A stretch of DNA of 37,279 bases from Chloroflexota bacterium (GTDB taxonomy: Bacteria > Chloroflexota > UBA6077 > JACCZL01). The notes beneath the pieces were generated by a model. That model ran no database searches. It worked only from the letters and a program-made list of their open reading frames with translations, and was not told where the DNA came from. A program made the translations under genes and the position numbers. Shown one piece after another: positions 1,033 through 27,438 of the stretch. Each line of letters starts with the position of its first letter. Positions within the stretch are counted from its first letter, which is position 1. The DNA is taken from assembly GCA_038318015.1 (NCBI GenBank), contig JBBQBU010000002.1:1-37279 (forward strand), in the 5' to 3' direction.

Positions 1033-1043
1033 ACCGATCACCC

Positions 1044-2027
1044 ATGCTCACGTATATCGTCCGGCGACTATTCGGGATGGTACCCACGCTGTTCGTGGTG
1101 TCGGTCCTGACGTTCATCATCATTCAGGCACCGCCCGGCGACTTCCTGACCACGCTGAGTACCCAGATGGCCGAGGGCGGCGGCGGCATCGACGAGAGTG
1201 CGTTGGAGGCCATGCGGAAGCAGTACGGCCTCGACCAGCCGATGTATATGCAGTACCTTGCCTGGGTGGCCGGCTTCCCGCGCGGCGACTTCGGCTACTC
1301 CGTCGAGTGGAAGACGTCAGTCGCCGATCTTATTGGTGGGCGACTCGGGTTTACCTTGCTCTTTTCGGTGCTGGCGCTGATCTTCACCTGGATCGTCGCC
1401 ATACCGATTGGCATCTACTCCGCGACGCACCAGTACAGTTGGGGCGATGTCGTCCTGACGTTCATCGGGTTCCTGGGGCTGAGTATCCCCGCGTTCATGC
1501 TCGGGCTGGTCTATCTGTTCATCGCGGCGTTCTGGTTCAACGCCTCGGTGGGCGGCCTGATGACGCCAGGCCTCGAAAGCGCCCCCTGGGGGCCAGAGAA
1601 GATCCTGGATGTCGTGAACCATCTGCTCTGGCCGACCATCATCGTGGGGGCGGCCGGCACCGCGCAGTTGATCCGCATCATGCGCGGCAATTTGCTGGAA
1701 ATCCTCGGGCAGCAGTACATCACTACCGCCCGCGCGAAGGGCTTGACAGAAAACGTCGTCGTAAACAAGTACGCCGTCCGCGTCGCGATCAATCCGCTGG
1801 TCAGCGTGATGGGCATGGAGTTGCCGAACCTCATCAACGGCGCGACGCTGTTGGGTATCGTGCTGTCCCTGCCCACGATCGGGCCGATGTTCCTGAACGC
1901 ACTCAAAAACCAGGATATCTACCTTGCTGGCACCATCCTCGTGATGCTGGCCGTGCTGCTGATGGTTGGCAACCTCCTGGCCGACGTAACGCTGGCCTGG
2001 GTCGATCCAAGGATTCGGTACGAATGA
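1044..2027 (+). CDS. ABC transporter permease (DppB/OppB type)
   Basis: 327 aa multi-TM protein with a binding-protein-dependent permease core (...ITTARAKGLTENVVVNKYAVRVAINPLV...). Its stop overlaps the next start. Confidence 0.9.
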   Translation: MLTYIVRRLFGMVPTLFVVSVLTFIIIQAPPGDFLTTLSTQMAEGGGGIDESALEAMRKQYGLDQPMYMQYLAWVAGFPRGDFGYSVEWKTSVADLIGGRLGFTLLFSVLALIFTWIVAIPIGIYSATHQYSWGDVVLTFIGFLGLSIPAFMLGLVYLFIAAFWFNASVGGLMTPGLESAPWGPEKILDVVNHLLWPTIIVGAAGTAQLIRIMRGNLLEILGQQYITTARAKGLTENVVVNKYAVRVAINPLVSVMGMELPNLINGATLLGIVLSLPTIGPMFLNALKNQDIYLAGTILVMLAVLLMVGNLLADVTLAWVDPRIRYE

Positions 2028-3196
2028 GCACCGTCGTTCAGCCTGGGGGATGGTCTTACCCCGAAGAGACCGCTGACGCTCCTGTCGAGCACGAGGCCAT
2101 CAGCGCGGCCGACGAAAAGCGCTACGCCCGCACGCAGCTGCAGATTATCTGGCTCAAGTTCGTGCACAACCGCGCGGCAATGGCCGGCGGTGCCGTCATC
2201 CTGGCGCTGTACCTCGGGGCGCTCTTTGCGGGGTTCCTCGCGCCGTACGACGCCGATCTGCGCGTCGACGCCGCCATCTACGTGCCGCCGCAGCCCATCT
2301 ATCTGGTGGATGACGGCAAGTTCTACCCCCACGTCCTCGGCGTGACGCGCACCATCGACCGCGAGACGTTGCGGCGCACCTACCTGCCGGACCCGTACAC
2401 CAAAATCCCCGTCCAGTTCTTCGTGAAGGGCGAGCCGTACAACCTGTTCGGCTTCATCCCGCTGGAGACGCACCTGTTCGGCATCGCTGACAAGGAGTGG
2501 GGCGTCTTCCTGCTTGGCACCGACCGCCAGGGGCGCGATCAGCTCTCGCGGCTGATCGTCGGCAGCCAGATCTCCCTGTCCATCGGACTGGTCGGCGTGA
2601 CCCTCAGCCTGCTCATCGGGTCGGTGATGGGCGTCGCCAGCGGCTACTTCGGCGGCTGGATCGACGACGTGATGCAGCGCACCATCGAGGTGATCCGCTC
2701 GTTCCCGTCGATCCCGCTGTGGATGGCGCTGGCGGCCGCGTTCCCGCCGCACTGGCCGCCGTTGCAGGTGTATTTCGCCATCGGCGTGGTGTTGTCTCTG
2801 ATTAGCTGGACCTGGCTGGCGCGACAGTTGCGCGGCAAGGTGCTGGCCCTGCGGGAAGAAGAGTACGTGCTGGCGGCACAGTTGGCCGGCGGCAGCGACT
2901 GGCGCATCATCTTTAAGCACCTGATCCCCTCGGCCACCAGCCACATCGTCGTGATCGCGACGTTGGCGATCCCGAACATGATCCTGGCCGAGACGGCGCT
3001 GACGTTCCTGGGCATCGGCATTCGGCCGCCGCTTGTGAGCTGGGGCACCCTGCTGCAAGAGGCCCAAAATATCCAGACGCTCGCGCACTTCCCTTGGCTC
3101 CTGATGCCGGTCGTCTTTATTGCGACGGCTGTGCTGGCGTTCAACTTCCTGGGCGACGGGCTGCGCGACGCGACCGACCCCTATTCGATGGTGTAG
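2024..3196 (+). CDS. ABC transporter permease (DppC/OppC type)
   Basis: ATG at 2024 overlaps the upstream TGA (ATGA, 2024-2027). MSTVVQPGG... has an OppC-like N-terminal extension and core (FLLGTDRQGRDQLSRLIVGSQISL). The 1016-2023 part of the track ORF is an R/P-rich shadow of the previous gene. Confidence 0.88.
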   Translation: MSTVVQPGGWSYPEETADAPVEHEAISAADEKRYARTQLQIIWLKFVHNRAAMAGGAVILALYLGALFAGFLAPYDADLRVDAAIYVPPQPIYLVDDGKFYPHVLGVTRTIDRETLRRTYLPDPYTKIPVQFFVKGEPYNLFGFIPLETHLFGIADKEWGVFLLGTDRQGRDQLSRLIVGSQISLSIGLVGVTLSLLIGSVMGVASGYFGGWIDDVMQRTIEVIRSFPSIPLWMALAAAFPPHWPPLQVYFAIGVVLSLISWTWLARQLRGKVLALREEEYVLAAQLAGGSDWRIIFKHLIPSATSHIVVIATLAIPNMILAETALTFLGIGIRPPLVSWGTLLQEAQNIQTLAHFPWLLMPVVFIATAVLAFNFLGDGLRDATDPYSMV

Positions 3197-3198
3197 CT

Positions 3199-4283
3199 AT
3201 GACGATGCCACTACCAGTCCAGTCGGGCCAGTCAAACCAGACGCTGCCGTCACCCCGGGCGCACAGCGGCTCGCTGCTGGAGATTGACGATCTCAAGACC
3301 CACTTTTTTACGCGTGACGGCGTCGTCAAGGCCGTAGATGGCGTGACCATTGACGTCAAGCCTGGCGAAACGGTCGGGCTGGTCGGCGAGTCCGGCTGCG
3401 GCAAGAGCGTCACCGCGCACACGCTCCTGCGGCTCCTGCCCCCGAAGGTCAGCCGCATCGTCGGCGGTCAAGTGCGCTTCACGCGTCGCAACGGCCAGAC
3501 CGTGGACATGACGAAGATCGACCCGAAAGGCAGCGAGATTCGGAGCATTCGCGGCAACGAGATCGCGATGATCTTTCAGGAGCCGATGACCTCTCTGTCA
3601 CCCGTGCACACCGTCGGCAGCCAGATTGCCGAGGCGATCATGCTGCACCGCGCGGCAAACAAGCACGACGCCTACCTTCAGACCGTCGAGGCGCTGAAGC
3701 AGGTCGGCATCGGCAACGCCGAACAGCGCTTCTTCGAGTACCCGCACCAGTTATCGGGTGGGTTGCGGCAGCGCTGTATGATCGCGATGGCCCTGTCGTG
3801 CAACCCGCGCTTGTTGATCGCTGACGAGCCGACGACGGCGCTAGACGTGACAATCCAGGCGCAGATTCTGGAGCTCTTGAAGAAGCTCCAGGCCGACTAC
3901 GGCATGGCGATCCTGATGATTACCCACAACCTGGGCGTCATCGCGGAGATGGCTGACCGAGTCGCTGTGATGTACATGGGCAAGGTCGTGGAGATGGGCG
4001 ACTCGCGGACCATCTTCAATCAACCCCAGCACCCGTACACCATCGGGTTGTTGCGGAGCCTGCCACGCGTCGGCAAGAACGTGAAAGTACGGCTGGCGTC
4101 GATCCCCGGCAGCGTGCCCGACCCGTTCAACCTGCCGCCGGGCTGCAGCTTCTACCCGCGCTGCCCGGCCCCCAAGCGTGCCAGTTGCCAGGAGCCGGTG
4201 CCGCTCCAAGAACTCGAACCCGGCCACTGGGTCCGGTGCACGCTGTACGAGCCGAGTCGGACCATCCCGCTGGGGGTGACGGC

Positions 4284-4287
<4 letters not shown>
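3199..4287 (+). CDS. ABC transporter ATP-binding protein (DppD/OppD type)
   Basis: Walker A GESGCGKS, signature LSGGLRQR, Walker [13 protein letters not shown], and a C-terminal oligopeptide-type Cys-rich tail. ATG 3199 lies 2 nt after the upstream TAG. Confidence 0.9.
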
Positions 4288-5348
<1,061 letters not shown>

Positions 5349-6043: not shown

Positions 6044-7159
6044 TCAGTAGGGGATGCCCTGCTCCAGGTAGTCGGCGCGCGGCTCGTGGCCGAGGCCCGG
6101 CGCGTCGGAGACGTGGAAGAAGCCGTCGTGCACATCGAACGGCGGGTCCATCACCTGCTGGTACTTCTTCAATTCCGAGTATGCAATCTCCAGGCGGAAG
6201 AAGTTGGACGTGGACATCATCGTCTGCGCGCCGGCAATGAGCGTGATCGGCCCAGTCGCGTCGTGCGGAGAGATCGGGATGAAGAACGTCTCGGCCAGCG
6301 TGGCGATCTTCTTCATCTCCGAGATGCCGCCCGTCCGGATGATGTCCGGCATGATGTAGTCTGCCAACTTCTGCTCGAGGACCGGGCGGAACTGCCAGCG
6401 CGTGTACAGCCGCTCGCCCACGCAGATCGGCACGTCCGTCTGGTCGCGGAACTGGCGCAGCGCGTCCCAATTCTCTGGCGGCACCGGCTCCTCGAACCAG
6501 CCGATGCGGTACGGCCGGAGGTGGTTCGCCAGGCGGACGGCGGTCGGCATGTTGAAGCGGCCATGCGCGTCGATGAAGATCTCGACGTTATTGCCGATCT
6601 CGGTGCGGATCGCGTCGATTATCTCGACTGCGGCGTAGTCCTCGTGCGACGGGTAGTTGGCCGCGTAGCCCGCGAGGTACGCCGCGCCGCGCTTGAACGG
6701 GTCAAGCTTAATGGCCGTGTGGCCCTCGTCCACCGTCGCGCGGGCCGCCTTTGCGTACTGCTCTGCCGTCTCGCAGCCGTCAAACCAGCCGTTGCTGTAC
6801 AGCACCAGATTCTCGTGGAACTTGCCGCCAAGTAGCTCGTAGATCGGCAGGCCGAGCATCTTGCCGCGAATGTCCCAGAGCGCGATGTCGATGCCCGAGA
6901 TTAGCGCCGAGACGAACCCGAGCGACCCCAGCGAGTTGAAGCTGGCATACAGCTTGTGCCAGATGAACTCAATCCGCGTCGGGTCTTCGCCAATCAGGAT
7001 CGGGGCCAGCCGGCTGGCCGCCGCCGCGACGACGCCGCTGTGCGGGCCGCTGGACGCCTGCCCCCAGCCATAAACGCCTTCGTCGGTATCAACTTTGAGG
7101 AAGACCCACGGGTAGCGCGTACCCGGCAGGTGGTAGGCCGTTACATTGGTGATCTTCAC
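6044..7159 (-). CDS. Enolase-superfamily enzyme, galactonate/mannonate dehydratase-like (mandelate racemase/muconate lactonizing family)
   Basis: GTG start with AGGAG upstream. N terminus MKITNVTAYHLPGTRYPWVFLKVDTDEGVYGWGQAS. Metal-ligand context FIDAHGRF, WFEEP, VGERLY. Confidence 0.85.
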   Translation of the reverse strand: MKITNVTAYHLPGTRYPWVFLKVDTDEGVYGWGQASSGPHSGVVAAAASRLAPILIGEDPTRIEFIWHKLYASFNSLGSLGFVSALISGIDIALWDIRGKMLGLPIYELLGGKFHENLVLYSNGWFDGCETAEQYAKAARATVDEGHTAIKLDPFKRGAAYLAGYAANYPSHEDYAAVEIIDAIRTEIGNNVEIFIDAHGRFNMPTAVRLANHLRPYRIGWFEEPVPPENWDALRQFRDQTDVPICVGERLYTRWQFRPVLEQKLADYIMPDIIRTGGISEMKKIATLAETFFIPISPHDATGPITLIAGAQTMMSTSNFFRLEIAYSELKKYQQVMDPPFDVHDGFFHVSDAPGLGHEPRADYLEQGIPY

Positions 7160-7324: not shown

Positions 7325-8263
7325 TCAGGCGTCGGCGGGCAGCCCCCGCTGCCACTCGATCTGCGCGCGCAAGCCGTCTTCAAGGGCCGTTTTCGGCTGC
7401 CAGCCAAGCTCATTGCGGGCCTTGTCGGTCACGGCCAGGGCGTCGCGCTGCTCGCCGATGCGGGCCGGGCCGTGGACAACGTTGGTCGTCTGGCCCGCCA
7501 GCCGCTGGATGGTGTCTACGATCCAGTTTGCCGACCGCGACTCGCCGCCGCCGACGTTGTAGACCTGCCCCGGCCGCCCCTCAATGGCCGCACGGATCGT
7601 CGCATCTACCGCGTCCTCGACGTAGGTGTTCCCGCGCGTCTGCTCGCCGTCCCCAAAGATGGTGATGGTCTCGCCGCGCAGCACCTTCTCGACGAAGATG
7701 GTGTAGCCCATGTCCGGGCGCTGGCGCGGCCCGTAGACCGAGAAGTAGCGCACCGCAACGACCGGCAACCCAAGCTCGGACTGATAGGCGAACGCCAGGT
7801 TCTCGGCGCAGAGCTTGGTGGCACCGTACGGGGAGATCGGTGCGGTCGGGGCGTCCTCGGCGCAACTTGAGCCGCGCCCGTACACCGACGACGTGGACAC
7901 CTGCACGAACGCCTGCGGCTTCACACCGCGCGCGGCTTCCAGAAGCCGCTGCGTCGCCAGGATATTGCAGGTCATGTACTCCTCGAACCAATCCCAGCTA
8001 CGGAGCAGGCCGGGCATCGCCGCCTCGTGGTAGATCACGTCGGCCCCGTCCACGATGGGCGCAAGGTCGGCCGTGCGAAGATCCGCCTCGACCAACTGGA
8101 ACTTCGGGTGCGCCAGCAGCGCGATGAGGTGGCGCTCCTTCCGGGCGCGCGGGTAGTAGGCGTGGAACATGTCCACCCCGACGACCTCATGACCCTCTCG
8201 CAGCAGCCGCTCAGAGAGGTGTGAGCCGACAAACCCGGCGGCACCGGTGACAAGACAGCGCAT
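7325..8263 (-). CDS. NAD-dependent NDP-sugar epimerase/dehydratase (extended SDR)
   Basis: MRCLVTGAAGFVGSHL Rossmann motif and YGATK catalytic motif. GGAGGA Shine-Dalgarno upstream of ATG 8263. Confidence 0.88.
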   Translation of the reverse strand: MRCLVTGAAGFVGSHLSERLLREGHEVVGVDMFHAYYPRARKERHLIALLAHPKFQLVEADLRTADLAPIVDGADVIYHEAAMPGLLRSWDWFEEYMTCNILATQRLLEAARGVKPQAFVQVSTSSVYGRGSSCAEDAPTAPISPYGATKLCAENLAFAYQSELGLPVVAVRYFSVYGPRQRPDMGYTIFVEKVLRGETITIFGDGEQTRGNTYVEDAVDATIRAAIEGRPGQVYNVGGGESRSANWIVDTIQRLAGQTTNVVHGPARIGEQRDALAVTDKARNELGWQPKTALEDGLRAQIEWQRGLPADA

Positions 8264-8360
8264 AGCATCCTCCGCCGCGAATTACAGCAGACTGCGCGCC
8301 GCCGGGCCAACTCGGGACACGAGTTTGGGCAACGTTGGAGGGGTGCGGCAGACTCACCCG

Positions 8361-8366
8361 TATAAT
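8361..8366 (+). promoter_or_regulatory. Perfect TATAAT -10-like hexamer upstream of the GT-C operon
   Basis: tataat at 8361-8366 in GC-rich DNA, 62 nt upstream of ATG 8428. No good -35 at 16-18 nt spacing, so this is weak. Confidence 0.3.
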
Positions 8367-8427
8367 TCGAGGCCCGAAGGACGGCCAACTGTGGTCGCCG
8401 TGGGCACGAGGTGGATCAGTCGTCCCG

Positions 8428-11400
8428 ATGCCCCAGGCTCGCCCACTGATTTTCGGCGCTGCCCTACTGTCGCTGGCGCTGCCAGGCCATCCGCTTGCGC
8501 TGCTGGGCGGATTGCCGCTTGATCTGCCCGCGATCTGGCTTGCCCTGCTCGTCGTCGGGTGGGCCGTGCTGCTGCCCGGAGCGCCACCGCGCGGACGGCT
8601 GCTGCTTGGCGGTCTCGCTGCCGTGGGGCTGCTGCGGGTACTCGTCGGGCTGGTCGCTCCGAGCTACGGGCTTGACGGAACGTACCGGCTTGATTCGGCC
8701 ACGCAGCCGGCCGGCGAGAACTGGCCGCGCGGGGCGCAGGTGGCAGGGCGCCTGGACTTCCGGGGCGACGAGTTCCCGGTGCATTTCATCAATGACGTCC
8801 GATACCTGAACTTCTACACGCCGAATCAGCCGAAACGCGACCTGTTGCCGTTCGCCGCACGCTGGACCGGCTTACTGGTCATGCCGGCGGCCGGCGAGCA
8901 GACGCTGTCGCTCGAAGCGAACGGGCCGGCGACGCTCGAACTCGGGAGCGCGGCCACGGGCGGCGTGCAGCGCGTCAGCATCGACCAGCCGGGCCGGCTG
9001 CGCGACGCCACGCTGACGGCGACGCTGCCGTCCGGCCTCATCCCGATCACCGTCACGTACCAGCGCCCGGACGAGGCGATGCCGTGGCTCGTCGTCCGTA
9101 ACGGCCCGCCCGTCACAGACGGTGAACCGCTCGGCGGGGTGCAACTGGTCCGGGCAGGCACTGGCGACACCGCCGTTGCCCGGGACGGCTGGCTGCGGCC
9201 GTTGGCGCTGGCCCTGGACGGCCTGTTCGTCGGGCTGCTCGGCGTCGGGTTTGCGGCGCATCTGCTGGCGACGCTGCGGGGCCGGCGGTCGGCCAGCACT
9301 GAGCCGGCAGGTGACGGCCAGCCCGAAGCGCCTGGAGCGTGGGCACCGCGCGGCCTGGAGCGCGTGTTGCTGGCCCTCTACGTCGTCGTCGCCGTCGGCT
9401 TCGAGATTCGTGACCATCAGCATCTGTTCGGCCGCGCGATCATCCTGTCGGGCGGCAACGACTGGCTCGCCTACGAGGGCTTCGCGCGGGACATCCTCAC
9501 CAACGGACTGTTGTTGACTGAGGGCCGCGCGCTCGGTCAGGGCGTCCCGTTCTACTATCAGCCGCTCTACATTTACTGGGTCGCTCTGACGCATCTGGTG
9601 CTCGGCGAAAGCCTGTTCGCGCCGCTGTTGATGAACACCGCCCTGGGAATTGCGGCCGGCGTCGGCGTCTACTGCCTGACCAGGAGCCTGTTCGGGCGGG
9701 GCGCGGCGCTGGCGGCCTTGCCGTTGTTCGAGGTCGCCCGGCAGACGGTCTTCGCGCCAACCGCCGGCCTGCTGCTCTCTGAAAACCTGATCTTCCCGCT
9801 GGTGCCGGTCTTCTTGCTGCTGTTCGCCCGCCTCGCAGTGACCGGGCGCGTCGGGTTGGCCGTCGCGGCAGGCTTCGTGCTCGGGTTGGGCGGCCTCGCC
9901 CGGACGACGCCGCTGGCGCTGCTGCCGCCCGCGCTGCTGATCCTGCTGCTGGCGTGGCGCAGGGTCCGTCTGGGGCGTCTCGCCTTCGGCTCGGATCGGC
10001 TGGCGCTTGGTTGGCGCGCGACGGTCGTCCGGCTGGCTGTTGTTGTCGTCGCCTGCACGCTGACACTGGGCATGGCCACGACCCGCAACTATCTGGTGTC
10101 GGGCCGCCCGGTGCCGATCACCAGCAGCGCCGGCGCGAACCTCTGGGAGACACATCGGCCGTCCAGCAAGGTCGATCTGTCGCGCATCGACCGTGACCCG
10201 TTGTACGAACGCCTGCAACTGGACCGCACGACCCGCGAGGTAGTGGAGTTCATACGGCAAGACGCGGCCGGCTATGTCGGCACGCTGGTCCCGATGTTCT
10301 TGTTTGCGGTGGGGGTGCAGGGCGCAGTCGTCGGCACCTGGGACGTGCAGCCGATCCTGTTCGGCCTCTGGGTGACCTATCTGCTGGCGTCGCTGGCGAT
10401 GCCCTGTGCCCGTACCTTGCCGACGCTCTTCCTGCACGCGTTCATCTGGAGTCACCTTGCCCAGATGACCATCTTCTTCTCGCACCAGTACGGCTTCCGG
10501 CTGATCCTGCCGATGTATGTCGCGATGGTACCGGTCGTCGCAGCGGGTGTTGCCGCTGTTGTCGCGAGGGTCGCCCGGCTGCTGACACTGCTCGGGGTGT
10601 TCCTGCCGGCTCGCGCGTCGTTGCCGCCCGTCACGCGAGTGGCGCTGGCGCTGGTGGCGTTTGCGGGGGGTGCGGCTGGCCTGGGGGCGATCGACTGGCG
10701 CAGCCCGGACGCGGCCCGAGAGGCGTTCTATGCGGTGAGCGGCGACGTGGCGATAGCAGTCCGGCAGGCGGCGCGCCCAGATCTGATGCGGCGGGTAGCC
10801 TCGGCGTATTTCGTGGGCGACGACAGCCGCTCGACCGACGTGGCCTATCTCAATGGGCTTGCGTTCCCGACGCTGCGCTGGTTCGATGGCGCACGCGGGG
10901 TCGTGCTGCCGCCGCCCGGCGAGCAGGCGCTCTATGTCATGCCCGACCGCGCCGCCGCCGACGTGGCGAAACAGTGTCTAGGCAGCAGCGCCAGCATTGG
11001 CCGCGAACGAGACCCGGTGGTCGGCGTCGGGCTGGAGCTGTTGCTCGCCTCGGCGGGCACCGGCGACTGCACGATGCCACGACTGCCTATCGGCGCGCCG
11101 TTCGGTGAGGGACAGGACGCGACGGCGCGGCTGCTCGGCCTGGACGGGCCGGCCTCCACCGAGCCGGGCCGCACGCTCGACGTGATGATCGCCTGGGAGG
11201 CGCTCGGGCGTCCGCGCAACCGCGCCCGGCCGCTGGTGACCCTGGTGGACAGTCGCGGGCGGCGCTGGGGACAGGCCGAGACGACGGCGTACCCAAGTTC
11301 GGCATGGCGGCCCGGCGAGCGGGCGGTTGGCGTCGCCCGGTTGGAGATCGACCCGACGTTGCCGCCCGGCGAGTACCGCCTTGATGGCGGCTTCAGCGCT

Positions 11401-19142: not shown

Positions 19143-19649
19143 TGGCGGAGCGTCGGATGGCGGCCCGGGCGACGAGGGATCCGTGGAACGCCGTGCCGCG
19201 GGTGCGGCCAGCGGCCTGCGGCGCGAGATTGAGCGGAACCGTTGCCAGCCAGCCGCGACAAGGCACACCGCCAGCGCCGACGCCGTGTCCAGCGCGACAT
19301 CGGTCAGGCGCGGCTCGCGCGTCGGCGTCAGCGACTGGCGTAGCTCGTCCAGGCCGCCGAACAGGCCGCAGGCGACAACCGTCGTGATGGCCGCCGCGCC
19401 GAGGGACAGACGCAGGCCGCCGTAGCTGCCGATGAGGGCGCGCAGCAGGAGAAGCGCCAATACGCCGTACTCGACGACGTGCGCCAGTTTCGCCAGCGTG
19501 AAGGTCGTGCGAATCGTCTCGCCGGTCTGAGGGTTCGTCCGCACCGGCAGATCAGACCTGCTGGACAGCCAGAGGATCAGCGACATCCAGGCCAGGACCG
19601 GCAGCCACGCCCAGCACAGCCGCGCGCATCGGCGCACTACGCCGACCAT
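19110..19649 (-). CDS. VanZ-like family membrane protein
   Basis: MVGVVRRCARLCWAWLPVLAWMSLILWLSS...KLAHVVEYGVLALLLL...GGLDELRQS is a VanZ-like pattern. The tail PRPRTGEGIGG is encoded by the repeat element. Confidence 0.7.
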   Translation of the reverse strand: MVGVVRRCARLCWAWLPVLAWMSLILWLSSRSDLPVRTNPQTGETIRTTFTLAKLAHVVEYGVLALLLLRALIGSYGGLRLSLGAAAITTVVACGLFGGLDELRQSLTPTREPRLTDVALDTASALAVCLVAAGWQRFRSISRRRPLAAPAARRSTDPSSPGPPSDAPPRPRTGEGIGG

Positions 19650-19687
19650 CCGCGCAGTGCCGTGTGAGAAACGGGCATCCGGTCGGC

Positions 19688-20665
19688 TCAGCCGACCGGC
19701 GCGGTGCTCGTGGGATACACGGCGATGATTCGCCGTAGCGCCTCGTCCAGCGTGGTATCCGGGGTGTAGCCGATGGTGGCGCGCAATTTCGAGACATCCG
19801 GCACCCGCCGGCGCATATCCTCGAAGCCCTCGCTATACGCCTCGGAGTAGGGGACGTAGACGATCTCCGAAGTGCTGCCGGTCAGCTCGATGACCCGCTG
19901 CGCCAGGGCCGAGATCGAGATTTCAGCGTGCCGGCCGACGTTGTAGACATCGCCCCAGGCCGAATCTGTTTCGGTCAGCGCGATCACCGACTTCACCACG
20001 TCGCCGACGTATGTGAAGCAGCGGGTCTGCACGCCGTCGCCGTACACTGTCACCGGCTCGTTGCGGAGCGCCTGCCCGATGAAGCGCGGCACAACCATGC
20101 CGTAGCGGCCGGTCTGGCGTGGGCCAATCGTGTTGAAGAAGCGCACGGCGATGGTCGGTAGCTTGCGCTCCTGCCAGTACGCCGCCGCCAGCGCCTCGTC
20201 GGCGGCCTTCGCTGTGGCATAGAACCAGCGGCTCAACTGGCTGGAGCCCATGATGCGGTCGTCGTCTTCCCGCAGCGGGCCGCTGTCGTTCTTGCCGTAC
20301 ACCTCAGATGTGGAGGCGATCAGGACCGGCTTCCGGTACTTGTCGGAGGCCGTCAGCACAATGTCGGTGCCGCGCAGGTTGGTTTCCAGCGACTTCAACG
20401 GATGCTCAAGCACCCACTTGACGCCGACTGCTGCCGCCAGGTGGTACACCAGATCCGCGTCGGCGATAGCGGCGTCCATCAGCGGCTCGTTGAGCACGCT
20501 GTCGATCGTCACGCGCAGCCGGGGATTGTCTTCCTGGAGTGCGAGGTTCGCCCTGACGCTCGTCGTCAACGAGTCGATGATGTGGATGTCATGGCCGCGC
20601 GCCAACAACTCTTCAACCAGGTGGGAGCCGATGAAGCCGGCTCCACCCGTTACCAGCACCTTCAT
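19688..20665 (-). CDS. NAD-dependent NDP-sugar epimerase/dehydratase (extended SDR)
   Basis: Start at ATG 20665 (MKVLVTGGAGFIGSHLVEELL), overlapping the upstream TGA (ATGA). YATAK catalytic motif. The upstream 200 codons of the track ORF are an R-rich shadow. Confidence 0.88.
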   Translation of the reverse strand: MKVLVTGGAGFIGSHLVEELLARGHDIHIIDSLTTSVRANLALQEDNPRLRVTIDSVLNEPLMDAAIADADLVYHLAAAVGVKWVLEHPLKSLETNLRGTDIVLTASDKYRKPVLIASTSEVYGKNDSGPLREDDDRIMGSSQLSRWFYATAKAADEALAAAYWQERKLPTIAVRFFNTIGPRQTGRYGMVVPRFIGQALRNEPVTVYGDGVQTRCFTYVGDVVKSVIALTETDSAWGDVYNVGRHAEISISALAQRVIELTGSTSEIVYVPYSEAYSEGFEDMRRRVPDVSKLRATIGYTPDTTLDEALRRIIAVYPTSTAPVG

Positions 20666-22515
20666 CGGGCACCAACTCCAGCGGGCTGCGTCTCGCTGGC
20701 AATCTGCGAGCGGAAGAACGCCCCGACATCCCGGAACGCGATGCCGCGCTTCCGACACTCGGAGAGCATATCGCCGTCGTACTGATTCGTCGTCAGCACC
20801 ACTTCCTCGATCTGCTCGCGCTCGATCACCTCGCCCAGCGACGACGACGGCCCAAGTATGCGAACTCCATGGATTGATCGGTCTCGCATGTCGCGGTCGT
20901 CGTCGAGAAACCCGACGACGCGATAGGCGCGCGTGCGGCTGCGGGACATCGCACGCAACACCAGTTCGCCAGTGTCGCCGGCCCCGACAATCAAGACCCG
21001 CACCAGATCCCTCCGCCGCAAGCGTGCCAGCACGTCGCGGATCAGGCCAAACGACATCCGCGCACTGATGAGCAGCGCGGTCACGACCATCCAGTCTACG
21101 AGCAAGACGGTGCGCGGCGCACCACCGTCGCCTCGGAAGGCCAGTTGAATCGCGCCGGCCGCCAGCATCGAGCCGACCGAGCTTGCCAGGGCCACGCGGA
21201 GCATGTCGCTGGTGCCCATGTATCGCCAGATGCTGCGGTAGACGCCCATCGCGAACAGGGACACGAGTTTGATACTTACGATCCACGGCAGGATTGTCGC
21301 GAACTGCTCGACGAAGTGGCGTTCAAGGGTGCCGTCAAAGCGCAACAGGTAGGCTGCCAGCAGGCCCAGGCAGATCAGCGTCAGGTCCAGCACCATCTCG
21401 GCAAGTTGCCGCTTGTACAGCCAGGAACCGCCGAGCACCAGTTTGCCGACGATACCCGGCTGCGACTGGATGCGCTCAAAGTCTGACTGGGTGTAGATGC
21501 GGACCTGCCCGAGATAGATGCCGAAGAAGCCGATGCCGAGGATGAGCAGCGACCCCAACAGGATCGTGACCGGGCCGCTGACGAAGTTCGAGGCGATGGC
21601 GAGGCTGCCGAACAGAATGCTGACGGCGTAGAGCACCAGCACCGCCGACCGGTCGTTCAGGCCGAGGGCCACGAGACGGTGCGACAGGTGGTCGCGCCCG
21701 CCCATCGAGATCGGGCGGTGGTGCAGCGAGCGGACAATGGTCACCAGCGAGGTGTCGAGGATCGGCAGGGCCATCACGCCGACCGGCACCAGCAGCGTCA
21801 GCGCCAGTTCAGAGCCGGCCTTCGCCGCGCCCAGCACCACGATGCCGCTGAGCAGGTACCCGACTAGCAGGCTGCCGCAGTCGCCCATGAAGATGCGGGC
21901 GGGGTTGAAGTTGAAGATCAGGAAGCCGCCGCATGCGCCGGCGATCACGATGCAGAGCAGTGCCGTCTGATGGTCGCCCTGCAAGAAGTTGAAGACGAAC
22001 AGCGTGGACGAGACGATCGTGCCGATGCCCGCAGACAGCCCGTCCATGTTATCGAGCAAGTTGAAGGCGTTGGTGACGGCGACGATCCAGAAGATCGTCA
22101 GCGGCACCATCAGCACCGACCAGGGCATGTACCGGGTGATCGGCAGGCTGGCGACCAGCACGCACGCCGCCACAATCTGCCCGAGCAGTTTGGCGTACGG
22201 CGGCAGCGGCTTGATGTCGTCGAAGAGGCCGAGCGCGAAGATCAGGACTGCGCCGATCAGCAGCGCCGCGAACCGGTCCAGCATGTGCGCCGAGACGGCC
22301 TCGGCTATCACCATGACCACCGGCACGCTGCCGACGAAGATGGCGATGCCGCCGAGCAGCGGCGTCGGCTGGCGGTGCCAGCGGTCGCGCTTCGGGTATG
22401 CGACCAGGCCGATACGCCCGGCGATGCGCCCGGCGACCGGCGTCATGACCGTGGCGATGCCGAGCGCAAGCAGCCCGGAGAGCAGATGGATCAGGACGAA
22501 CGGCTGACTGCTCAT
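20662..22515 (-). CDS. Polyprenyl-phosphate HexNAc-1-phosphate transferase (WecA/MraY family, Glycos_transf_4) fused to a WbaP/PglF-type TM plus Rossmann-like (CoA_binding_3-like) module
   Basis: N-terminal half carries LFDDIKPL, NAFNLLDNMDGL and FMGDCGS motifs. C-terminal half: SIKLVSLFAMGVYRSIWRYMG...VRVLIVGAGDTGELVLRAM...YRVVGFLDDD. One uninterrupted 617-aa ORF. Confidence 0.8.
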   Translation of the reverse strand: MSSQPFVLIHLLSGLLALGIATVMTPVAGRIAGRIGLVAYPKRDRWHRQPTPLLGGIAIFVGSVPVVMVIAEAVSAHMLDRFAALLIGAVLIFALGLFDDIKPLPPYAKLLGQIVAACVLVASLPITRYMPWSVLMVPLTIFWIVAVTNAFNLLDNMDGLSAGIGTIVSSTLFVFNFLQGDHQTALLCIVIAGACGGFLIFNFNPARIFMGDCGSLLVGYLLSGIVVLGAAKAGSELALTLLVPVGVMALPILDTSLVTIVRSLHHRPISMGGRDHLSHRLVALGLNDRSAVLVLYAVSILFGSLAIASNFVSGPVTILLGSLLILGIGFFGIYLGQVRIYTQSDFERIQSQPGIVGKLVLGGSWLYKRQLAEMVLDLTLICLGLLAAYLLRFDGTLERHFVEQFATILPWIVSIKLVSLFAMGVYRSIWRYMGTSDMLRVALASSVGSMLAAGAIQLAFRGDGGAPRTVLLVDWMVVTALLISARMSFGLIRDVLARLRRRDLVRVLIVGAGDTGELVLRAMSRSRTRAYRVVGFLDDDRDMRDRSIHGVRILGPSSSLGEVIEREQIEEVVLTTNQYDGDMLSECRKRGIAFRDVGAFFRSQIASETQPAGVGAR

Positions 22516-23687
22516 GCGGCCAGCCCCTTTGCGCGTGCCAACTCCAGATAGAGCCGTTCGATGTCCGCGATGAGGCGGCCGGACGAGTGGCGCGGATAGA
22601 CAGCCTTGCGACCGGCCAGCCCGAACGCCGTCGCCTGCTCAGGGTTGCGGAGCAATTGTAGCAGCGCGTCAGCGAAGGCGTCCGCATCGCCGGCGGGCAC
22701 CAGCAAGCCGCTCTCGCCGTCGTGGACCACGTCTGGCACGCCGCCGACGCGCGTCGAAACGACGGGCCGCGCCGCCGCCATCGCCTCGATGAGTGCAACG
22801 GGCGAGCCTTCGTTGTTGGAGCAGAGCGCCGCCACGTCCAGATCCGCGTTCACTTCGCGCATATCTTCTCGCCAGCCCAGGAACCGCGTCGCGTCCGCAA
22901 TGCCGAGCGACCGTGCTAGCTGCTCTAGCTCGGCGCGCCGCTCACCATCCCCTACGATAAGGAACGTGGTGTTGGGCATTGCGGCCCGGACTTTCGCGGC
23001 GGCCGTGAGGAAAACCTCATGTGCCTTGATGGGAACGAGACGCGCGACGATCCCGACGAGGCGCTGGTCGGCCCCGATGCCTAGTTCGGCGCGCAATTGG
23101 CCGCGATACTGCTCGGCCTGAAGCAGCGGCTCGATCTCCAGCCCCAGCGGGACCGTCTGGATCTTGTGCAGCGGCGCAACGCCATATTTCGCGATGTCGG
23201 CGCGCTGGGCGTCATTGACGGCGATCACGCGGTCGGTCACCGCCCCAAGCGTGCGCTCGATCTGCAAGAAGACTGCCGACTTGACCGGCCCCCAGTAACT
23301 GTGAAACGTGTGCCCGTGAAAGGTGTGCACGATGATCGGCACGCGCGCCAGCTTCGCGGCCAGCCGGCCAGCCGTGCCCGCCTTCGCCATGTGGGTGTGG
23401 ACGATGTGCGGGCGGCTCTGGCGGATCAGCCGGTACATGGCGAGGGTCACGCGCAGATCGTTGACCGGGCTGACCTCACGGCCAAGCTCGCGGAGGACGC
23501 GCGGCTGAACGCCATGGTTGTCGGCCAATTGCCGCATCGATCCCTCGTGCGGACCTTCGACACCCGTCACCAGCTCTGACGAGAAACGGTCGTTCTGGAG
23601 ACCCTGTGTCAGCAGGATCGTGTGGATCGCCGGGCCGCCAATGTTCAGTCGCGTGATGGCCCGAAGGACCCGCAGCTTCTCCGGCAT
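22512..23687 (-). CDS. Glycosyltransferase, GT4 family (GT-B fold)
   Basis: Start at ATG 23687 (MPEKLRVLRAITRLNIGGPAIH, a typical GT4 N terminus). C-terminal ...SNNEGSPVALIEAMAAARPVVSTRVGGVPDVV (EX7E-type). Its stop overlaps the next ATG. Confidence 0.85.
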   Translation of the reverse strand: MPEKLRVLRAITRLNIGGPAIHTILLTQGLQNDRFSSELVTGVEGPHEGSMRQLADNHGVQPRVLRELGREVSPVNDLRVTLAMYRLIRQSRPHIVHTHMAKAGTAGRLAAKLARVPIIVHTFHGHTFHSYWGPVKSAVFLQIERTLGAVTDRVIAVNDAQRADIAKYGVAPLHKIQTVPLGLEIEPLLQAEQYRGQLRAELGIGADQRLVGIVARLVPIKAHEVFLTAAAKVRAAMPNTTFLIVGDGERRAELEQLARSLGIADATRFLGWREDMREVNADLDVAALCSNNEGSPVALIEAMAAARPVVSTRVGGVPDVVHDGESGLLVPAGDADAFADALLQLLRNPEQATAFGLAGRKAVYPRHSSGRLIADIERLYLELARAKGLAA

Positions 23688-23731
23688 GATCCCTCGACGG
23701 AAGCGGTCACGCCCGTCCGGCGCGCGTGCAG

Positions 23732-23760
23732 AGTATATAGGTGGACCGCCCATTTCTCAA
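23732..23760 (-). promoter_or_regulatory. Sigma-70-like promoter candidate for the glycosyltransferase operon (TTGAGA-17 nt-TATACT)
   Basis: On the minus strand: -35 TTGAGA (23760-23755), 17-nt spacer, -10 TATACT (23737-23732). The -10 end lies 44 nt upstream of ATG 23687. Confidence 0.4.
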
Positions 23761-23820
23761 AGGAGACGCGCAACCGGCCATCGCAAGCACCGCCGGGCCG
23801 GGTGCGGCGGGCGTGGCAAC

Positions 23821-23860
23821 CCCCACCCCCGACCCCCTCTCCCGCAAGCGGGAGAGGGGA
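23821..23860. repeat. GC-rich palindromic element, intergenic copy
   Basis: ccccacccccgaccccctctcccgcaagcgggagagggga. Near-identical left arm and core to 12487-12527. Confidence 0.8.
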
Positions 23861-23997
23861 GACGTCAGCCCCCGATGTGTGCCGGACGCGGGAGCGAGCG
23901 GCATGGCCTCGTAGGGGCGAATCGCTGCTTCGCCCGCCGCGCACGGGTCGCCCGCTGTACCGGGAATACACGCTTGGCCGGGCCGTACGTTGGTGGG

Positions 23998-24282
23998 TCA
24001 GGCGTGGGTGTGACGCTCAGCGCGCTCGGCCCGGCGGTAAAGGGACTGCACCATGCCTGCGCGAATCGCCATCGTCCAGGTGAGCGTGGCGTCAATCTCG
24101 GCGTCGGTGGCCCCGGCCCGCTTCGCCCCGGTGATGCGGCGCTGGGTGCACGGCTCACAGTTGCCAATCAAGACGACTGCGATGCCGATCAGCGCCTTCG
24201 TCTTATGGTCGAGCGCGTCGTTGTCGCGGCAGTTGGCGTACCACTGCTCAAACTGGTCAAAGAGGGACGGATCGTCTGCCAT
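23998..24282 (-). CDS. Carboxymuconolactone decarboxylase family protein (AhpD-like)
   Basis: 94 aa. ...LDHKTKALIGIAVVLIGNCEPCTQRRITGAKRAGATDAEIDATL... has the CxxC of AhpD-like CMD domains. Confidence 0.8.
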   Translation of the reverse strand: MADDPSLFDQFEQWYANCRDNDALDHKTKALIGIAVVLIGNCEPCTQRRITGAKRAGATDAEIDATLTWTMAIRAGMVQSLYRRAERAERHTHA

Positions 24283-24406
24283 AGCGGTCTCCGCTCCTGA
24301 TGCTGGTGTGTTCGATGGCGCGTCGCGAGTGGGCCGACCGTGGCCGGGTCGGTCACGCCAGTATACCGATGTGCGCGGATCGGCCGAATCTGTGGCGCGC
24401 TGCGAA

Positions 24407-25318
24407 CTAGCGGAAGACGGGCTGCGTCCAGAGTTGGCGGCCGTCTGTTGCCGTCGCGCGGATGCGGGCGTAGCCGCTGACGGCCGACAGCTTGAAGGCG
24501 GCGCGCTGGCCGTCCACCTTGTCGAGGACCACGCCGCCGGTCCCGATCAGTTCAATCGTCGCGGTGTCGCCCGCCAACTCAAGGCTGACCTCGGTGGCTG
24601 TCACATCGTAAGCTGCCAACTCCAGCCCCGACGAGCCGTAGAAGCGCCCGATGCGAAGGGCGCTCAGCACGTCGCCCAGGCGCGCCGTGTCGGCCTCCGC
24701 CTGGAGCCAGCCCCGGCCAGGGTTCGCGTACTCATCGCCCCAGCGCTGGAAGTGGTGGGCATCGTCGGAGGCTACGCCCCAGACCTGTCGCCCGGAGCTG
24801 AGCAGGGCGTCCCAGATCGCTTCGGTAGACGGATGCATCTCGTCGCCCATGTTCTGCACGACGTTGTGCCCGTTCGCCACTTCGACCATGCCGAAGTCAC
24901 CGGACGCCATCAGATCCTCAATGGACAGGGTGAACAGGTAGTTGGGGTGGTTGACGTGCGGGACTGCGCCTTGCGCCAGAATGCGCTCGATGGCCCAGCG
25001 GACGCGCTCGGAGTGGCCCTCCGTCACCTCGGCCTCGTACATGCTGCTGCCCGGCCACGGCGGCGCGATCAACTCCTTCAGGCCCAGGCCGTTGACGTGG
25101 ACGGCGGCCATCGTCACTTCCTCGCCCTGCCAGACGGGCATGGTGCCGCGCTGGAGCCGCGCGAGGTGGTCATCGGGAATCAGGATATTGTGGTCGGTCA
25201 GGAAAAGGAAGTCGTAGTTGTGCGCTTCATACCAATCGACCACCGTCTCGGGCGGACTGTCCCCGTCGCTGTACTTGGTGTGGGTGTGGGTGTTCCCCTT
25301 TTGCCAGCGCCGTGCCAT
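24407..25318 (-). CDS. PHP-domain / CehA-McbA-type metal-dependent phosphoesterase
   Basis: MARRWQKGNTHTHTKYSDGDSPPETVVDWYEAHNYDFLFLTDHN (His-rich PHP motif I). ATG 25318 is preferred (GAGGA upstream) over the TTG at 25351. Confidence 0.72.
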   Translation of the reverse strand: MARRWQKGNTHTHTKYSDGDSPPETVVDWYEAHNYDFLFLTDHNILIPDDHLARLQRGTMPVWQGEEVTMAAVHVNGLGLKELIAPPWPGSSMYEAEVTEGHSERVRWAIERILAQGAVPHVNHPNYLFTLSIEDLMASGDFGMVEVANGHNVVQNMGDEMHPSTEAIWDALLSSGRQVWGVASDDAHHFQRWGDEYANPGRGWLQAEADTARLGDVLSALRIGRFYGSSGLELAAYDVTATEVSLELAGDTATIELIGTGGVVLDKVDGQRAAFKLSAVSGYARIRATATDGRQLWTQPVFR

Positions 25319-25461
25319 CGGCTCGGTCCTCGGTTTCGGTGGCGTCGGCAATGCGTCGCTCCACGATCACCGCGCCGTGAGGGTACAGGACGGTGCGCTG
25401 TGGTTCCCAGCCAGCGGCCGGTGTGCAGGCGGCCCACTCGGAGGGCAGCGGCGGAGCAGGG

Positions 25462-25501
25462 CAAAAAGAAACGCGACCGTGTTGGGAGTCCACGGTCGCG
25501 T
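25462..25501 (-). terminator. Rho-independent terminator-like hairpin plus U tract (minus strand)
   Basis: Minus-strand reading: acgcgaccgtg-gactcccaa-cacggtcgcgt followed by tttcttttt. 11-bp perfect stem. Confidence 0.65.
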
Positions 25502-25551
25502 CGGACACCAGTGGGGGAGGGCCACTGACGATCCCAGGCTTCCTGGGGAGC

Positions 25552-25586
25552 GGGGCCGCTGTCGGCTCGGCTCCGACAGCGGCCCC
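25552..25586. other. Perfect 14-bp stem, 7-nt loop hairpin in non-coding DNA
   Basis: ggggccgctgtcgg-ctcggct-ccgacagcggcccc, read directly. Confidence 0.7.
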
Positions 25587-25841
25587 ACACAGAAGGGGAT
25601 GGCGTCAGTATGGGGCCTCCGCTCGCCGGCGAATACGGGCAGACTCGCCAATGTTGACGCGGATGGCGTTGTGCACTCCGCACGAATATGCAGGCCATGG
25701 AAGGCGCTTTGCCGCGCTGACGGTGAGTGCCGTCGTACAGAGTGCCTGAGGCAGCGATTCTGGCGACGATGGACGTGGCGTCCAGCAGCCACCAATGACA
25801 CGCGGCAAGATGCCGATGCCGATGCCGGCCGCATGGGTTGG

Positions 25842-26444
25842 CTAGTGGGCCGACCGGAACCAGCCGAACGCCTGCCCCGATGTTTGAGGCTCCGCCGGCT
25901 CCTCGCCGAGGGCGGCGGCAAGGTCAGGCGGGAACTGAGCCAGAATCCAGGCCGCGTCAAGCAGCGGCCGGCGGTAGTCGCCGCCGCCGTAGTTGACGTA
26001 ATCGAGCGTCTTGACATCCATCGGCAGGTTCGCTTCCATCGGGAAATAGCAGTTGTGCCGCACGATCAGCTCGTTGATCGGCTCCAACTTGACCCCTGCG
26101 ACGTGGCGCTGCCATGCGGTCGCGAAGCGCGCACGGTCGCCGCGTGCCTTTTTCGCCAGTTCGTGCCAGTCGTGGTCGAGTTGCGCCGTGGCGGAGGCGG
26201 TCAGGTCGTAGATGCGCTTCAGGCGGCGCGACCAAGCCGGCGCGCCGCCAATCGCCAGCGCCCGCACCTGATCCGTGACGGAGACCAGAGAACTGGGGAT
26301 GTGCTCGCTCAGGCCGTTCTCTTTACTGGCTTGGGGCGGCTCCAGGGCGATGCGCGCCTCTTCCTCATTTTGCCGGCGGGTCATGCGCCGGCGGGACAGC
26401 CGCGCGGCGGATAGTGAGCCGAAGATCTCACTTAACTCTTCCAT
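25842..26444 (-). CDS. Hypothetical protein (200 aa), no family recognised
   Basis: ORF with coding-like composition. Start placed at ATG 26444 (MEELSEIFGSL...). No Shine-Dalgarno seen, so the start is uncertain. Confidence 0.55.
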   Translation of the reverse strand: MEELSEIFGSLSAARLSRRRMTRRQNEEEARIALEPPQASKENGLSEHIPSSLVSVTDQVRALAIGGAPAWSRRLKRIYDLTASATAQLDHDWHELAKKARGDRARFATAWQRHVAGVKLEPINELIVRHNCYFPMEANLPMDVKTLDYVNYGGGDYRRPLLDAAWILAQFPPDLAAALGEEPAEPQTSGQAFGWFRSAH

Positions 26445-27322: not shown

Positions 27323-27438
27323 GCTGCACCCGCTCGGCGGGACACGTGGGAAGGCCGCCGCTGAGACCAGAGCAGAAGGCGCATGGCGGGAGTGTACCGC
27401 CCCAGGCAACCGGTCGCGCCACTCTGACGGGCAAACGG

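Follow-up and report, generated by a model that had tools for sequence, protein, structure and literature searches.

A conserved Chloroflexota gene cluster encoding four GT-C membrane proteins, with PA14-like modules ahead of the core

What does a bacterium assemble with four large membrane proteins of the GT-C glycosyltransferase superfamily, encoded head to tail, three of which carry a PA14-like beta module in front of the core? The question is raised by a 37,279-nucleotide stretch of a Chloroflexota bacterium (assembly GCA_038318015.1, contig JBBQBU010000002.1, positions 1 to 37,279), referred to here as the window. The four open reading frames (ORFs) were named ORF1 to ORF4 and lie on the plus strand. 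We give an even chance to the reading that the gene cluster around them (7325–23753) assembles a cell-envelope glycan in two stages, in which the GT-C enzymes would extend a lipid-primed glycan outside the membrane.

The GT-C array and its putative active sites

ORF1 (8428..12330, 1300 amino acids) comprises three N-terminal transmembrane (TM) helices, a degenerate PA14-like module, a TM hairpin, a PMT_2-type GT-C core, an extra TM helix and a 545-residue tail that is predicted to be extracytoplasmic. ORF2 (12327..14525, 732 amino acids) is the canonical PA14-GT-C protein, with about 14 predicted TM helices and both termini predicted inside. ORF3 (14620..16485, 621 amino acids) is a DUF2079 membrane protein of GT-C fold that ends in an alpha/beta domain and a beta-sandwich, predicted to be extracytoplasmic. 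ORF4 (16487..18781, 764 amino acids) is a second PA14-GT-C paralogue. The ORF listing and the translations placed ATG starts at 8428, 12327, 14620 and 16487. The sequence showed an ATGA overlap between ORF1 and ORF2 (12327–12330) and a gap of 1 nt between ORF3 and ORF4 (TAG-c-ATG at 16483–16489), and the spacing between ORF2 and ORF3 is 94 nt. A first-pass annotation of the window had described four head-to-tail plus-strand ORFs with this overlap and this gap, and the listing and the sequence reads bear it out. The peptides that it quoted (LPFSVRWDGFLYVPADGTYQLWLTASGPAALRLDG; GGNDWLAYEGFARDIL, GGQDWLTHESFARDIL, GGQDWLTYESYARDIL) were found in the translations of ORF1, ORF2 and ORF4. The Arg-rich N terminus that it described is slightly overstated, with just 1–2 Arg among the first 9 residues.

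Judged from their pairwise alignments, which cover 650–785 columns, ORF1, ORF2 and ORF4 are paralogues. The identity was 39% between ORF2 and ORF4 (E = 9e-135), 34% between ORF1 and ORF2 (E = 8e-74) and 37% between ORF1 and ORF4 (E = 6e-94). These E-values, like the Pfam scores given below, are far beyond chance. The window proteins were then compared with their orthologues at three loci of other Chloroflexota metagenome-assembled genomes (MAGs), namely L001 (GCA_020850535.1), L002 (GCA_030447245.1) and L004 (GCA_046328115.1). Identity across MAGs was 46–64% for the ORF1 type, 55–74% for the ORF2 type and 51–62% for the ORF4 type, and identity between the types was 33–45%. By this sequence comparison the three types are separate orthologous lineages. 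Since identity within a type exceeds that between types, the triplication predates these species. The orthologues of ORF1 are 1251–1354 amino acids long at L001, L002, L004 and L036 (GCA_020845495.1).

The Pfam search showed that ORF1, ORF2 and ORF4 match PMT_2 (PF13231) with 34.6, 42.1 and 31.2 bits, all above the 26.1-bit gathering cut-off. The AlphaFold model of ORF2, built from a 45-sequence alignment, had a predicted local distance difference test score (pLDDT) of 88.4 and a predicted template modelling score (pTM) of 0.88. The model starts with helices at residues 4–18, 34–49 and 68–93, followed by a beta module (99–249), a long helical hairpin (262–303 and 305–335), a loop with two short helices (336–397) and about ten further helices, the last of which ends at residue 713. 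This matches the layout claimed at first pass, that is, three TM helices, a beta module, one TM helix with a basic loop and a multi-TM core. In Foldseek searches of the PDB, the membrane part of ORF2 matched yeast STT3 (5e-5), AglB (2.7e-4), EmbB (2.8e-4), ALG3 (8e-4) and ArnT (1.2e-3), with low TM-scores (0.3–0.4) that do not discriminate the GT-C subclasses. The earlier claim of a GT-C core is supported by the PMT_2 matches and by these structural matches, EmbB and ArnT among them. The ORF2-family profile found only PA14 domains and no GT-C structure at E < 1 among PDB sequences; therefore, the ORF2 core is remote from every structurally characterised GT-C enzyme. No NCBIfam family was found for ORF1 to ORF3, and the best match of ORF4 was just 0.086.

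ORF3 was annotated by Pfam as DUF2079 (PF09852) with 179.5 bits (E = 1.7e-52, model positions 1–422 of 459; gathering cut-off 28.2 bits), in agreement with the signature noted at first pass. That DUF2079 groups with the GT-C enzymes had also been proposed, and the AlphaFold model of ORF3 (40-sequence alignment, pLDDT 90.5) has the GT-C fold. Its membrane part matched STT3 (9e-5), the C-mannosyltransferase DPY19 (3e-4), PglB (3.7e-4) and EmbB (1.3e-2) in Foldseek. The profile alignment of ORF3 with the ORF2 family by hhalign gave 4.9% probability with 5 sequences and 58% (E = 9.8e-5) with 40, which is only suggestive, so the GT-C call for ORF3 rests on its fold. The ORF3 family profile had no match among PDB sequences. 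All four proteins thus have a GT-C fold or family signature, ORF1 and ORF4 by homology to ORF2.

The putative catalytic loop of ORF2 is the first extracytoplasmic loop of the core (13332..13517, residues 336–397), which follows helix 305–335. Among 45 homologues, G344, D347, W348, E352, R356, H391, G395 and E396 of this loop are invariant and D357 is nearly so. Further invariant positions of the family are E454, R494, R543, H566, Q600-D601-P602, H666 and R681. Among 62 distant homologues (24–39% identity), R356 and H391 are invariant, and at least 90% of the sequences retain D347, E352, E454, R494, R543 and R681. The corresponding loop of ORF1 (9451..9609) reads GGNDW..E..ARD (D345, E350, R354, D355) and is followed by H389 and E394. 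ORF1, ORF2, ORF4 and nearly all of their orthologues share D347, E352, R356, D357, H391, E396, E454, R494, R543 and H566; the exception is one ORF1-type orthologue with E352A and H391Q. Because this core set is kept in all three types, no paralogue looks like a pseudo-enzyme, and all three are probably active. In ORF3, D67 is invariant in 40 homologues.

Accessory modules and predicted topology

The PA14 module of ORF2 (12615..13073, residues 97–249) scored 39.6 bits in Pfam (PF07691, E = 5.6e-10, residues 97–241; gathering cut-off 24 bits) and was also matched by the PDB profile search and by Foldseek. That of ORF4 (16748..17236) scored 35.5 bits (1e-8) over residues 88–222 and was extended by alignment. 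The module of ORF1 (8668..9130, about residues 81–235) scored 13.7 bits (E = 0.055), below the cut-off. The alignments of ORF1 to ORF2 and ORF4 span this region, so the ORF1 module would be a degenerate PA14 homologue. The claim of three PA14-like modules therefore holds by Pfam for ORF2 and ORF4, while ORF1 is PA14-like by paralogue homology only. Overall, the Pfam check foreseen in the first-pass annotation returned PMT_2 above cut-off in ORF1, ORF2 and ORF4, DUF2079 in ORF3, and PA14 in ORF2 and ORF4.

The best PA14 match of the ORF2-family profile in the PDB was RsgI (1.4e-12). Foldseek aligned the beta module of ORF2 with the PA14 domains of MpAFP (5e-6), RsgI (1e-5) and the anthrax protective antigen (about 1e-4), and also with those of an RTX adhesin and of enzymes of glycoside hydrolase (GH) families GH3 and GH31, with probability 1.0. 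In its AlphaFold model, the beta module of ORF2 has the PA14 beta-barrel fold. The conserved residues of the module in the 45-sequence alignment are F142, N144, D145, R148, F149 and N150, together with a VDAxGR motif. To our knowledge, the FxND..RFN motif of this family is not a standard PA14 feature. The window ORF1 lacks R126, R148 and F149 (ORF2 numbering), all three of which are retained by its orthologues.

ORF1 and ORF3 share a further module, which was absent from the first-pass annotation, as was the 545-residue tail of ORF1 itself. The C-terminal beta-sandwich of ORF3 (16102..16482, residues 495–621) is repeated three times in the ORF1 tail, at 11119..11355 (residues 898–976, E = 9.6e-10), 11533..11802 (residues 1036–1125, E = 2.1e-13) and 11923..12315 (residues 1166–1296, E = 1.4e-15). 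The repeats were detected by hmmsearch with a profile of ORF3 residues 495–621; a BLAST self-comparison of the tail failed to show them. The same profile found no copy in ORF2 or ORF4, and the module had no Pfam name in a search to E ≤ 10. Its weak Foldseek similarities are to GH2 accessory domains and to the carbohydrate-binding module of Wzt (E 0.03–0.07). The profile of the ORF1 tail had no match among PDB sequences, and fragments homologous to the tail carry precomputed DUF4832 or MG2 matches. The PA14 and beta-sandwich modules together make five or six beta modules, predicted to face outward, across the four proteins.

The topology of ORF1 to ORF4 was predicted from helix parity and positive-inside charge. 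In 45 homologues of ORF2, both termini are basic and the turn between helices 262–303 and 305–335 is strongly basic (mean 3.07 K+R vs 0.58 D+E in 14.8 residues), and the following, putative catalytic loop is acidic (6.58 D+E vs 3.78 K+R). Exactly two membrane helices separate the PA14 module from the catalytic loop, which would put both on one side, and in every known GT-C enzyme the catalytic first loop is non-cytoplasmic. The two-helix spacing, the basic turn and the acidic loop are thus consistent with the earlier proposal that the PA14 modules and the acidic loops face outward. The other basic short loops of ORF2 (KRLFG at about residue 421, DERRLRD at 472, RRAGLSR at 512 and ARARSLRS at 649) can be read as cytoplasmic, which would give 14 TM helices, both termini inside and an external long loop (538–631). 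ORF1 has an extra, 15th TM helix (10636..10689, residues 737–754) within a hydrophobic segment (735–756) that follows an Arg-rich stretch. It lies where ORF2 would end in the cytoplasm and so would carry the 545-residue tail outside. ORF3 has basic loops at about residues 140 (RR), 190 (RPR), 223 (RRER) and 351 (RLRRGPPR) and acidic conserved loops at D67, at about 168 (DDFH) and at 206–208 (EEE); this pattern would place its C-terminal domain outside as well.

A GC-rich hairpin element, CCTCTCCC-N6-GGGAGAGG with GGGGTGAGGGC-like arms, occurs in 3 copies in the window (12503–12524, 17444–17465 and 23836–23857) vs 0 expected by chance. Two copies are in frame within ORF2 and ORF4; the stretches that they encode, PLSHLWERGRGVRA and SPLPRTGEGPGVRAPVVREGPGVRV among them, fall in loops predicted to be cytoplasmic. 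Similar insertions occur in homologues at different loop positions. The element looks like a repeat of the repetitive extragenic palindrome or miniature inverted-repeat transposable element (REP/MITE) type, tolerated within coding sequence. Rfam and tRNA searches of the window gave no matches.

The conserved cluster and the glycan it may assemble

The region 7325–23753 is a conserved Chloroflexota cluster. It encodes, in order, a short-chain dehydrogenase/reductase (SDR), ORF1, ORF2, the DUF2079 protein ORF3, ORF4, a VanZ protein, a second SDR, a WecA-type phosphotransferase and a glycosyltransferase of family GT4. A survey of gene neighbourhoods had been suggested at first pass; the annotation itself had missed the conserved flanking initiation genes. 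The gene set is present in four other Chloroflexota MAGs. It forms one block of identical order at L001 and L002. In GCA_046328115.1 it is divided into SDR-ORF1-ORF2 (L004) and DUF2079-ORF4-VanZ-SDR-phosphotransferase-GT4 (L035). In GCA_020845495.1, SDR-ORF1 is directly followed by DUF2079-ORF4-VanZ-SDR-phosphotransferase-GT4 (L036), and the ORF2-type gene is on a separate contig (L037) beside a further PMT_2 gene. DUF2079 adjoins the ORF4-type gene in every case.

The left edge of the cluster is an SDR nucleotide-sugar epimerase/dehydratase gene (7325..8263, minus strand), which is divergent from ORF1 and has the same position at L001, L002, L004 and L036. Its product matches Pfam Epimerase (6.4e-56), and its best NCBIfam matches are of the RmlB, LegB and GalE types, all below cut-offs. 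The genes to the right of ORF4 are also on the minus strand. The VanZ-family small membrane protein (19110..19649; Pfam 7.4e-10, NCBIfam vanZ_1 1e-13) has the same position at L001, L002, L035 (two copies) and L036, always with the GT-C genes on one side and the SDR and phosphotransferase genes on the other. Its possible roles are those of an accessory factor and of a flippase-like protein. Another, partial VanZ-like ORF (18674–19300, minus strand) matches only the C-terminal half of the model and overlaps the full-length VanZ ORF; it converges on the 3′-end of ORF4 and overlaps that gene too. The second SDR (19688..20665) resembles 4,6-dehydratases and UDP-xylose synthases (LegB, RmlB and UDP-xylose synthase types), and an ATGA overlap joins its start to the stop of the upstream gene. 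A frameshift between the two genes was ruled out by this overlap and by the same split in four other MAGs.

That upstream gene (20662..22515) encodes a WecA/MraY-type polyprenyl-phosphate sugar-1-phosphate transferase fused to a WbaP/WbpM-type TM and CoA_binding_3 region (Pfam Glycos_transf_4 4.2e-36, CoA_binding_3 1.7e-13). In NCBIfam, WecA was matched on residues 23–331 (3e-30) and the N-terminal half of EPS_sugtrans on residues 376–604. The protein is an unusual chimera of a WecA/MraY-type part (23–331) and a non-catalytic WbaP or WbpM/PglF-type region (376–604). From its family matches it is likely the initiating enzyme. Together with the SDR it resembles a rearranged WbpL-WbpM pair, and the first sugar may be a 6-deoxy-N-acetylhexosamine (6-deoxy-HexNAc). 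The right edge of the cluster is a cytoplasmic GT4 (GT-B) glycosyltransferase gene (22512..23753; Pfam Glyco_trans_1_4 4.1e-39), conserved at L001, L002, L035 and L036.

In the two-stage reading, the first stage would take place at the cytoplasmic face. The WecA-type phosphotransferase, by its family membership, would load HexNAc-1-phosphate, possibly in 6-deoxy form, onto polyprenyl phosphate, the GT4 enzyme would attach a second sugar, and the two SDR enzymes would provide modified nucleotide sugars. After flipping, ORF1, ORF2, ORF4 and the DUF2079 protein would extend or branch the glycan at the outer face with lipid-phosphate-linked sugars as donors. Catalysis would depend on the conserved acidic first external loop, with D347, E352, R356 and D357 in ORF2 and D67 in ORF3. 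The PA14 and beta-sandwich modules may keep the glycan that serves as acceptor in place at the active site. Carbohydrate-binding modules with this role are found in polysaccharide-directed GT-C enzymes, namely EmbA/B/C, AftD and ORF12 of family GT136 (PMC11127046).

Several points weigh against this reading. The cluster, and the 10 kb around it at L001 and L002, contain no GT2 polyprenyl-phosphate sugar synthase, recognised flippase, chain-length regulator or LCP-type ligase. In the absence of a GT2 synthase, flippase and LCP-type ligase, the cluster itself gives neither the donor supply nor the final acceptor, and donor and acceptor are not readable from the sequence. The PMT_2 family includes protein- and lipid-directed enzymes too. 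The classical calcium/Asp-Asp sugar-binding motif of PA14 is not evident, as no consecutive Asp pair is conserved in the 45-sequence alignment. Every homologue traced to its source comes from uncultured organisms.

With the phosphotransferase and GT4 present and no GT2 synthase, the cluster's own lipid-linked product can only be diphosphate-linked. This favours transfer en bloc, in which at least one GT-C protein, above all the DUF2079 protein, would polymerise or ligate the polyprenyl-diphosphate-linked oligosaccharide made by the WecA-type transferase and GT4, as oligosaccharyltransferases or O-antigen ligases and polymerases do. STT3, AglB and PglB are the best GT-C structural matches of ORF2 and ORF3, and ORF3 is like them in its predicted C-terminal extracytoplasmic domain. 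However, TM-scores of 0.3–0.4 do not separate the GT-C subclasses, and membership of this family (GT66) was rejected: there is no STT3 Pfam match, and no WWD or WWDYG-type motif in ORF2 to ORF4. Moreover, the functionally known relatives within PMT_2, ArnT and the TMTC type, use monophosphate-linked single sugars. We consider en-bloc transfer unlikely.

In a protein O-glycosylation system, the paralogues would be enzymes of the PMT/TMTC kind, with secreted or S-layer proteins as substrates and PA14 in the role of the MIR lectin domain. In favour of this are the PMT_2 match and the labels "glycosyltransferase family 39" and "protein mannosyltransferase" from automated annotation, and a GT-C core is likewise combined with a non-cytoplasmic lectin-type domain in the eukaryotic and actinobacterial Pmt1/2 enzymes (GT39). 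In Pmt1/2, however, the MIR domain is a beta-trefoil in a late loop and not a PA14 module ahead of the core, and the gene context differs. There was no match to PMT (PF02366), MIR or PMT_4TMC at E < 0.1 and no Pmt chain in the PDB profile search, and membership of GT39 was therefore rejected. The tight conserved linkage to the WecA-type transferase, GT4 and the SDRs is typical of polymer pathways and unneeded for Pmt-type mannosylation, and four co-operating GT-C enzymes with beta-sandwich and PA14 modules are better suited to a polymeric acceptor. This gene context favours glycan assembly, and we regard protein O-glycosylation as decidedly improbable.

It is scarcely credible that PA14 detects external polysaccharide as in RsgI and gates the enzyme, or that some paralogues are non-catalytic scaffolds: the closest PDB sequences of the module are indeed RsgI sensor domains (E 1.4e-12) and the window ORF1 has a degenerate PA14, but none of the three paralogues has lost any of the conserved core residues, the module is fused between the TM helices of an enzyme with a confidently modelled placement relative to the core (pTM 0.88), and no signalling output domain is present.

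The flanking metabolic genes are ordinary. The conserved cluster ends at 23753, and the next 2.8 kb or so (23754–26570) have no Pfam-recognisable gene. Three long plus-strand ORFs (24053–25528, 25218–26414 and 26570–27247) were considered for the missing flippase or synthase and rejected as spurious, with Arg/Ala-rich translations, no family matches and plausible genes on the other strand. The plausible minus-strand genes are 23998–24282 (94 amino acids), 24407–25351 (314 amino acids) and 25842–26510 (222 amino acids). The 94-residue product resembles that of a carboxymuconolactone-decarboxylase-type gene at the same place at L001. Two minus-strand genes for enolase-superfamily dehydratases of the galactonate/mannonate dehydratase type (6044–7159 and 29869–30993) flank the region. 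Other neighbours are an Opp-type ABC transporter (1016–5348), a TrmB-type regulator (27346–28275), an S-adenosylhomocysteine hydrolase and a lactate permease. L001 shows synteny for the first dehydratase gene and the Opp genes. A four-helix-bundle, bAvd-like 23S ribosomal RNA (rRNA) intervening-sequence protein is encoded at 578–991 on the plus strand (E = 2e-34), with no rRNA nearby.

Known relatives, distribution and the Chloroflexota envelope

The window proteins belong to the GT-C superfamily and to Pfam PMT_2, PA14 and DUF2079. The arabinosyltransferases EmbC-EmbA-EmbB (GT53) had been proposed as the model for the array. The logic of this comparison stands: both are sets of GT-C paralogues in tandem, with about 15 TM helices and outward carbohydrate-binding-type modules (predicted here), in a WecA-type-primed glycan pathway, that of the wall in the case of Emb, and EmbB is a Foldseek match of ORF2 (2.8e-4) and ORF3 (1.3e-2). 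The sequence relationship does not stand. No Emb Pfam match was found at E < 0.1 and no Emb chain at E < 1 in the PDB profile search, so that the resemblance is at the level of the fold and membership of GT53 was rejected. The module is also of a different kind and at the opposite end. In Emb it is C-terminal and not PA14, whereas the PA14 module of the window proteins lies at the N-terminal end, anchored by three TM helices of its own and followed by a return helix, and the window cluster has no nearby genes for decaprenyl-phospho-arabinose synthesis.

ArnT (GT83-like) is like the window proteins in the PMT_2 family (PF13231) matched by ORF1, ORF2 and ORF4, in fold (Foldseek 1.2e-3) and in the catalytic Asp of the first external loop. 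Unlike them, it has no lectin module, and the window cluster has no arn pathway genes. Membership of GT83 was rejected, since the family profile had no PDB sequence match at E < 1 and NCBIfam gave no ArnT match. ORF12 of Citrobacter youngae (GT136) and AftD are likewise GT-C enzymes with an attached module that binds the unmodified backbone of the acceptor glycan, extracytoplasmic and with a lipid-linked donor; they differ in the type and position of the module and in having an adjacent donor synthase and flippase (three-component systems), neither of which the window cluster has (PMC11127046). The PA14 module itself is closest to the PA14 dyads of RsgI by sequence (1.4e-12) and to the PA14 domain of MpAFP by fold (5e-6). 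RsgI and MpAFP are extracellular carbohydrate binders, but as sensors or adhesins and not as modules of an enzyme.

We speculate that the array is an Emb-like but evolutionarily independent machine for glycan polymerisation outside the membrane. It may act as the two conserved pairs ORF1-ORF2 and DUF2079-ORF4, possibly heteromers, with the PA14 and beta-sandwich modules as processivity or chain-length clamps. The product would be the polysaccharide layer long postulated for the envelope of Chloroflexota, and VanZ might serve as the lipid-sugar flippase that the cluster lacks, or in an accessory role. This picture is tentative, and we hold it to be possible rather than probable.

PMT_2-type GT-C genes without PA14 also adjoin PA14-GT-C genes, at L002 (8367–10004), L037 (868–2589) and the Acidobacteria locus L023 (7835–9763, minus strand). 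The 545-residue PMT_2 protein of L002 has no BLAST similarity to the ORF1/ORF2/ORF4 family.

All 124 homologues found by shared sequence words with ORF2 come from metagenomes or MAGs, and every organism-labelled one is from Chloroflexota. The scan of GTDB species representatives gave 29 loci, all in MAGs; most are from Chloroflexota, three from Acidobacteria and one from Rokubacteria, with a partial match in Moranbacteria. At L023, the homologue lies with a GT4, an asparagine synthase, a WecA-type transferase, a second PMT_2 protein and a GDP-mannose dehydratase. When 1.84 billion representative proteins were searched with a profile restricted to the N-terminal module (three TM helices, PA14, two TM helices), 175 matches were obtained at E ≤ 1e-30 and 1254 at E ≤ 1e-10. 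Among the best 150 matches, about 100 have a single, N-terminal, full module in proteins of 600–1350 amino acids, and the remainder are multi-PA14 giants. These matches put the number of 50%-identity clusters with PA14 N-terminal to a GT-C core at roughly 100 or more. Of 62 distant representatives, 54 match PMT_2 and just 10 match Pfam PA14 (E < 1e-3), which indicates that this layout is widely distributed among uncultured bacteria and under-annotated. The sources traced for ten distant representatives were all metagenomes or MAGs, with no cultured host.

The first-pass annotation had stated that no characterised system is known to have PA14 ahead of a GT-C core. The literature search agrees with it, as no publication was found in the searchable library on PA14 with GT-C or GT39, on DUF2079, or on Chloroflexi with GT-C. 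The co-occurrence of PA14 and PMT_2 as such is already in automated database labels: the 124 homologues are named "glycosyltransferase family 39 protein" (NCBI), "PA14 domain-containing protein" and [quoted passage not shown] (JGI).

The PA14-GT-C proteins add a sizeable family to the GT-C enzymes, in which a PA14 lectin-type module with its own membrane anchor precedes the core, a new arrangement of accessory modules. The GT-C fold of DUF2079 is now shown by a high-confidence model, and an unnamed beta-sandwich module common to two different GT-C families has been defined. Chloroflexota stain Gram-negative yet lack the genes for an outer membrane and lipopolysaccharide, and their layered envelope is thought to consist of polysaccharide or protein, with no biosynthetic pathway known (PMC13319060). 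The cluster described here, which joins a WecA-type initiator to four GT-C enzymes predicted to act externally, is a concrete candidate pathway for the envelope layers of Chloroflexota.

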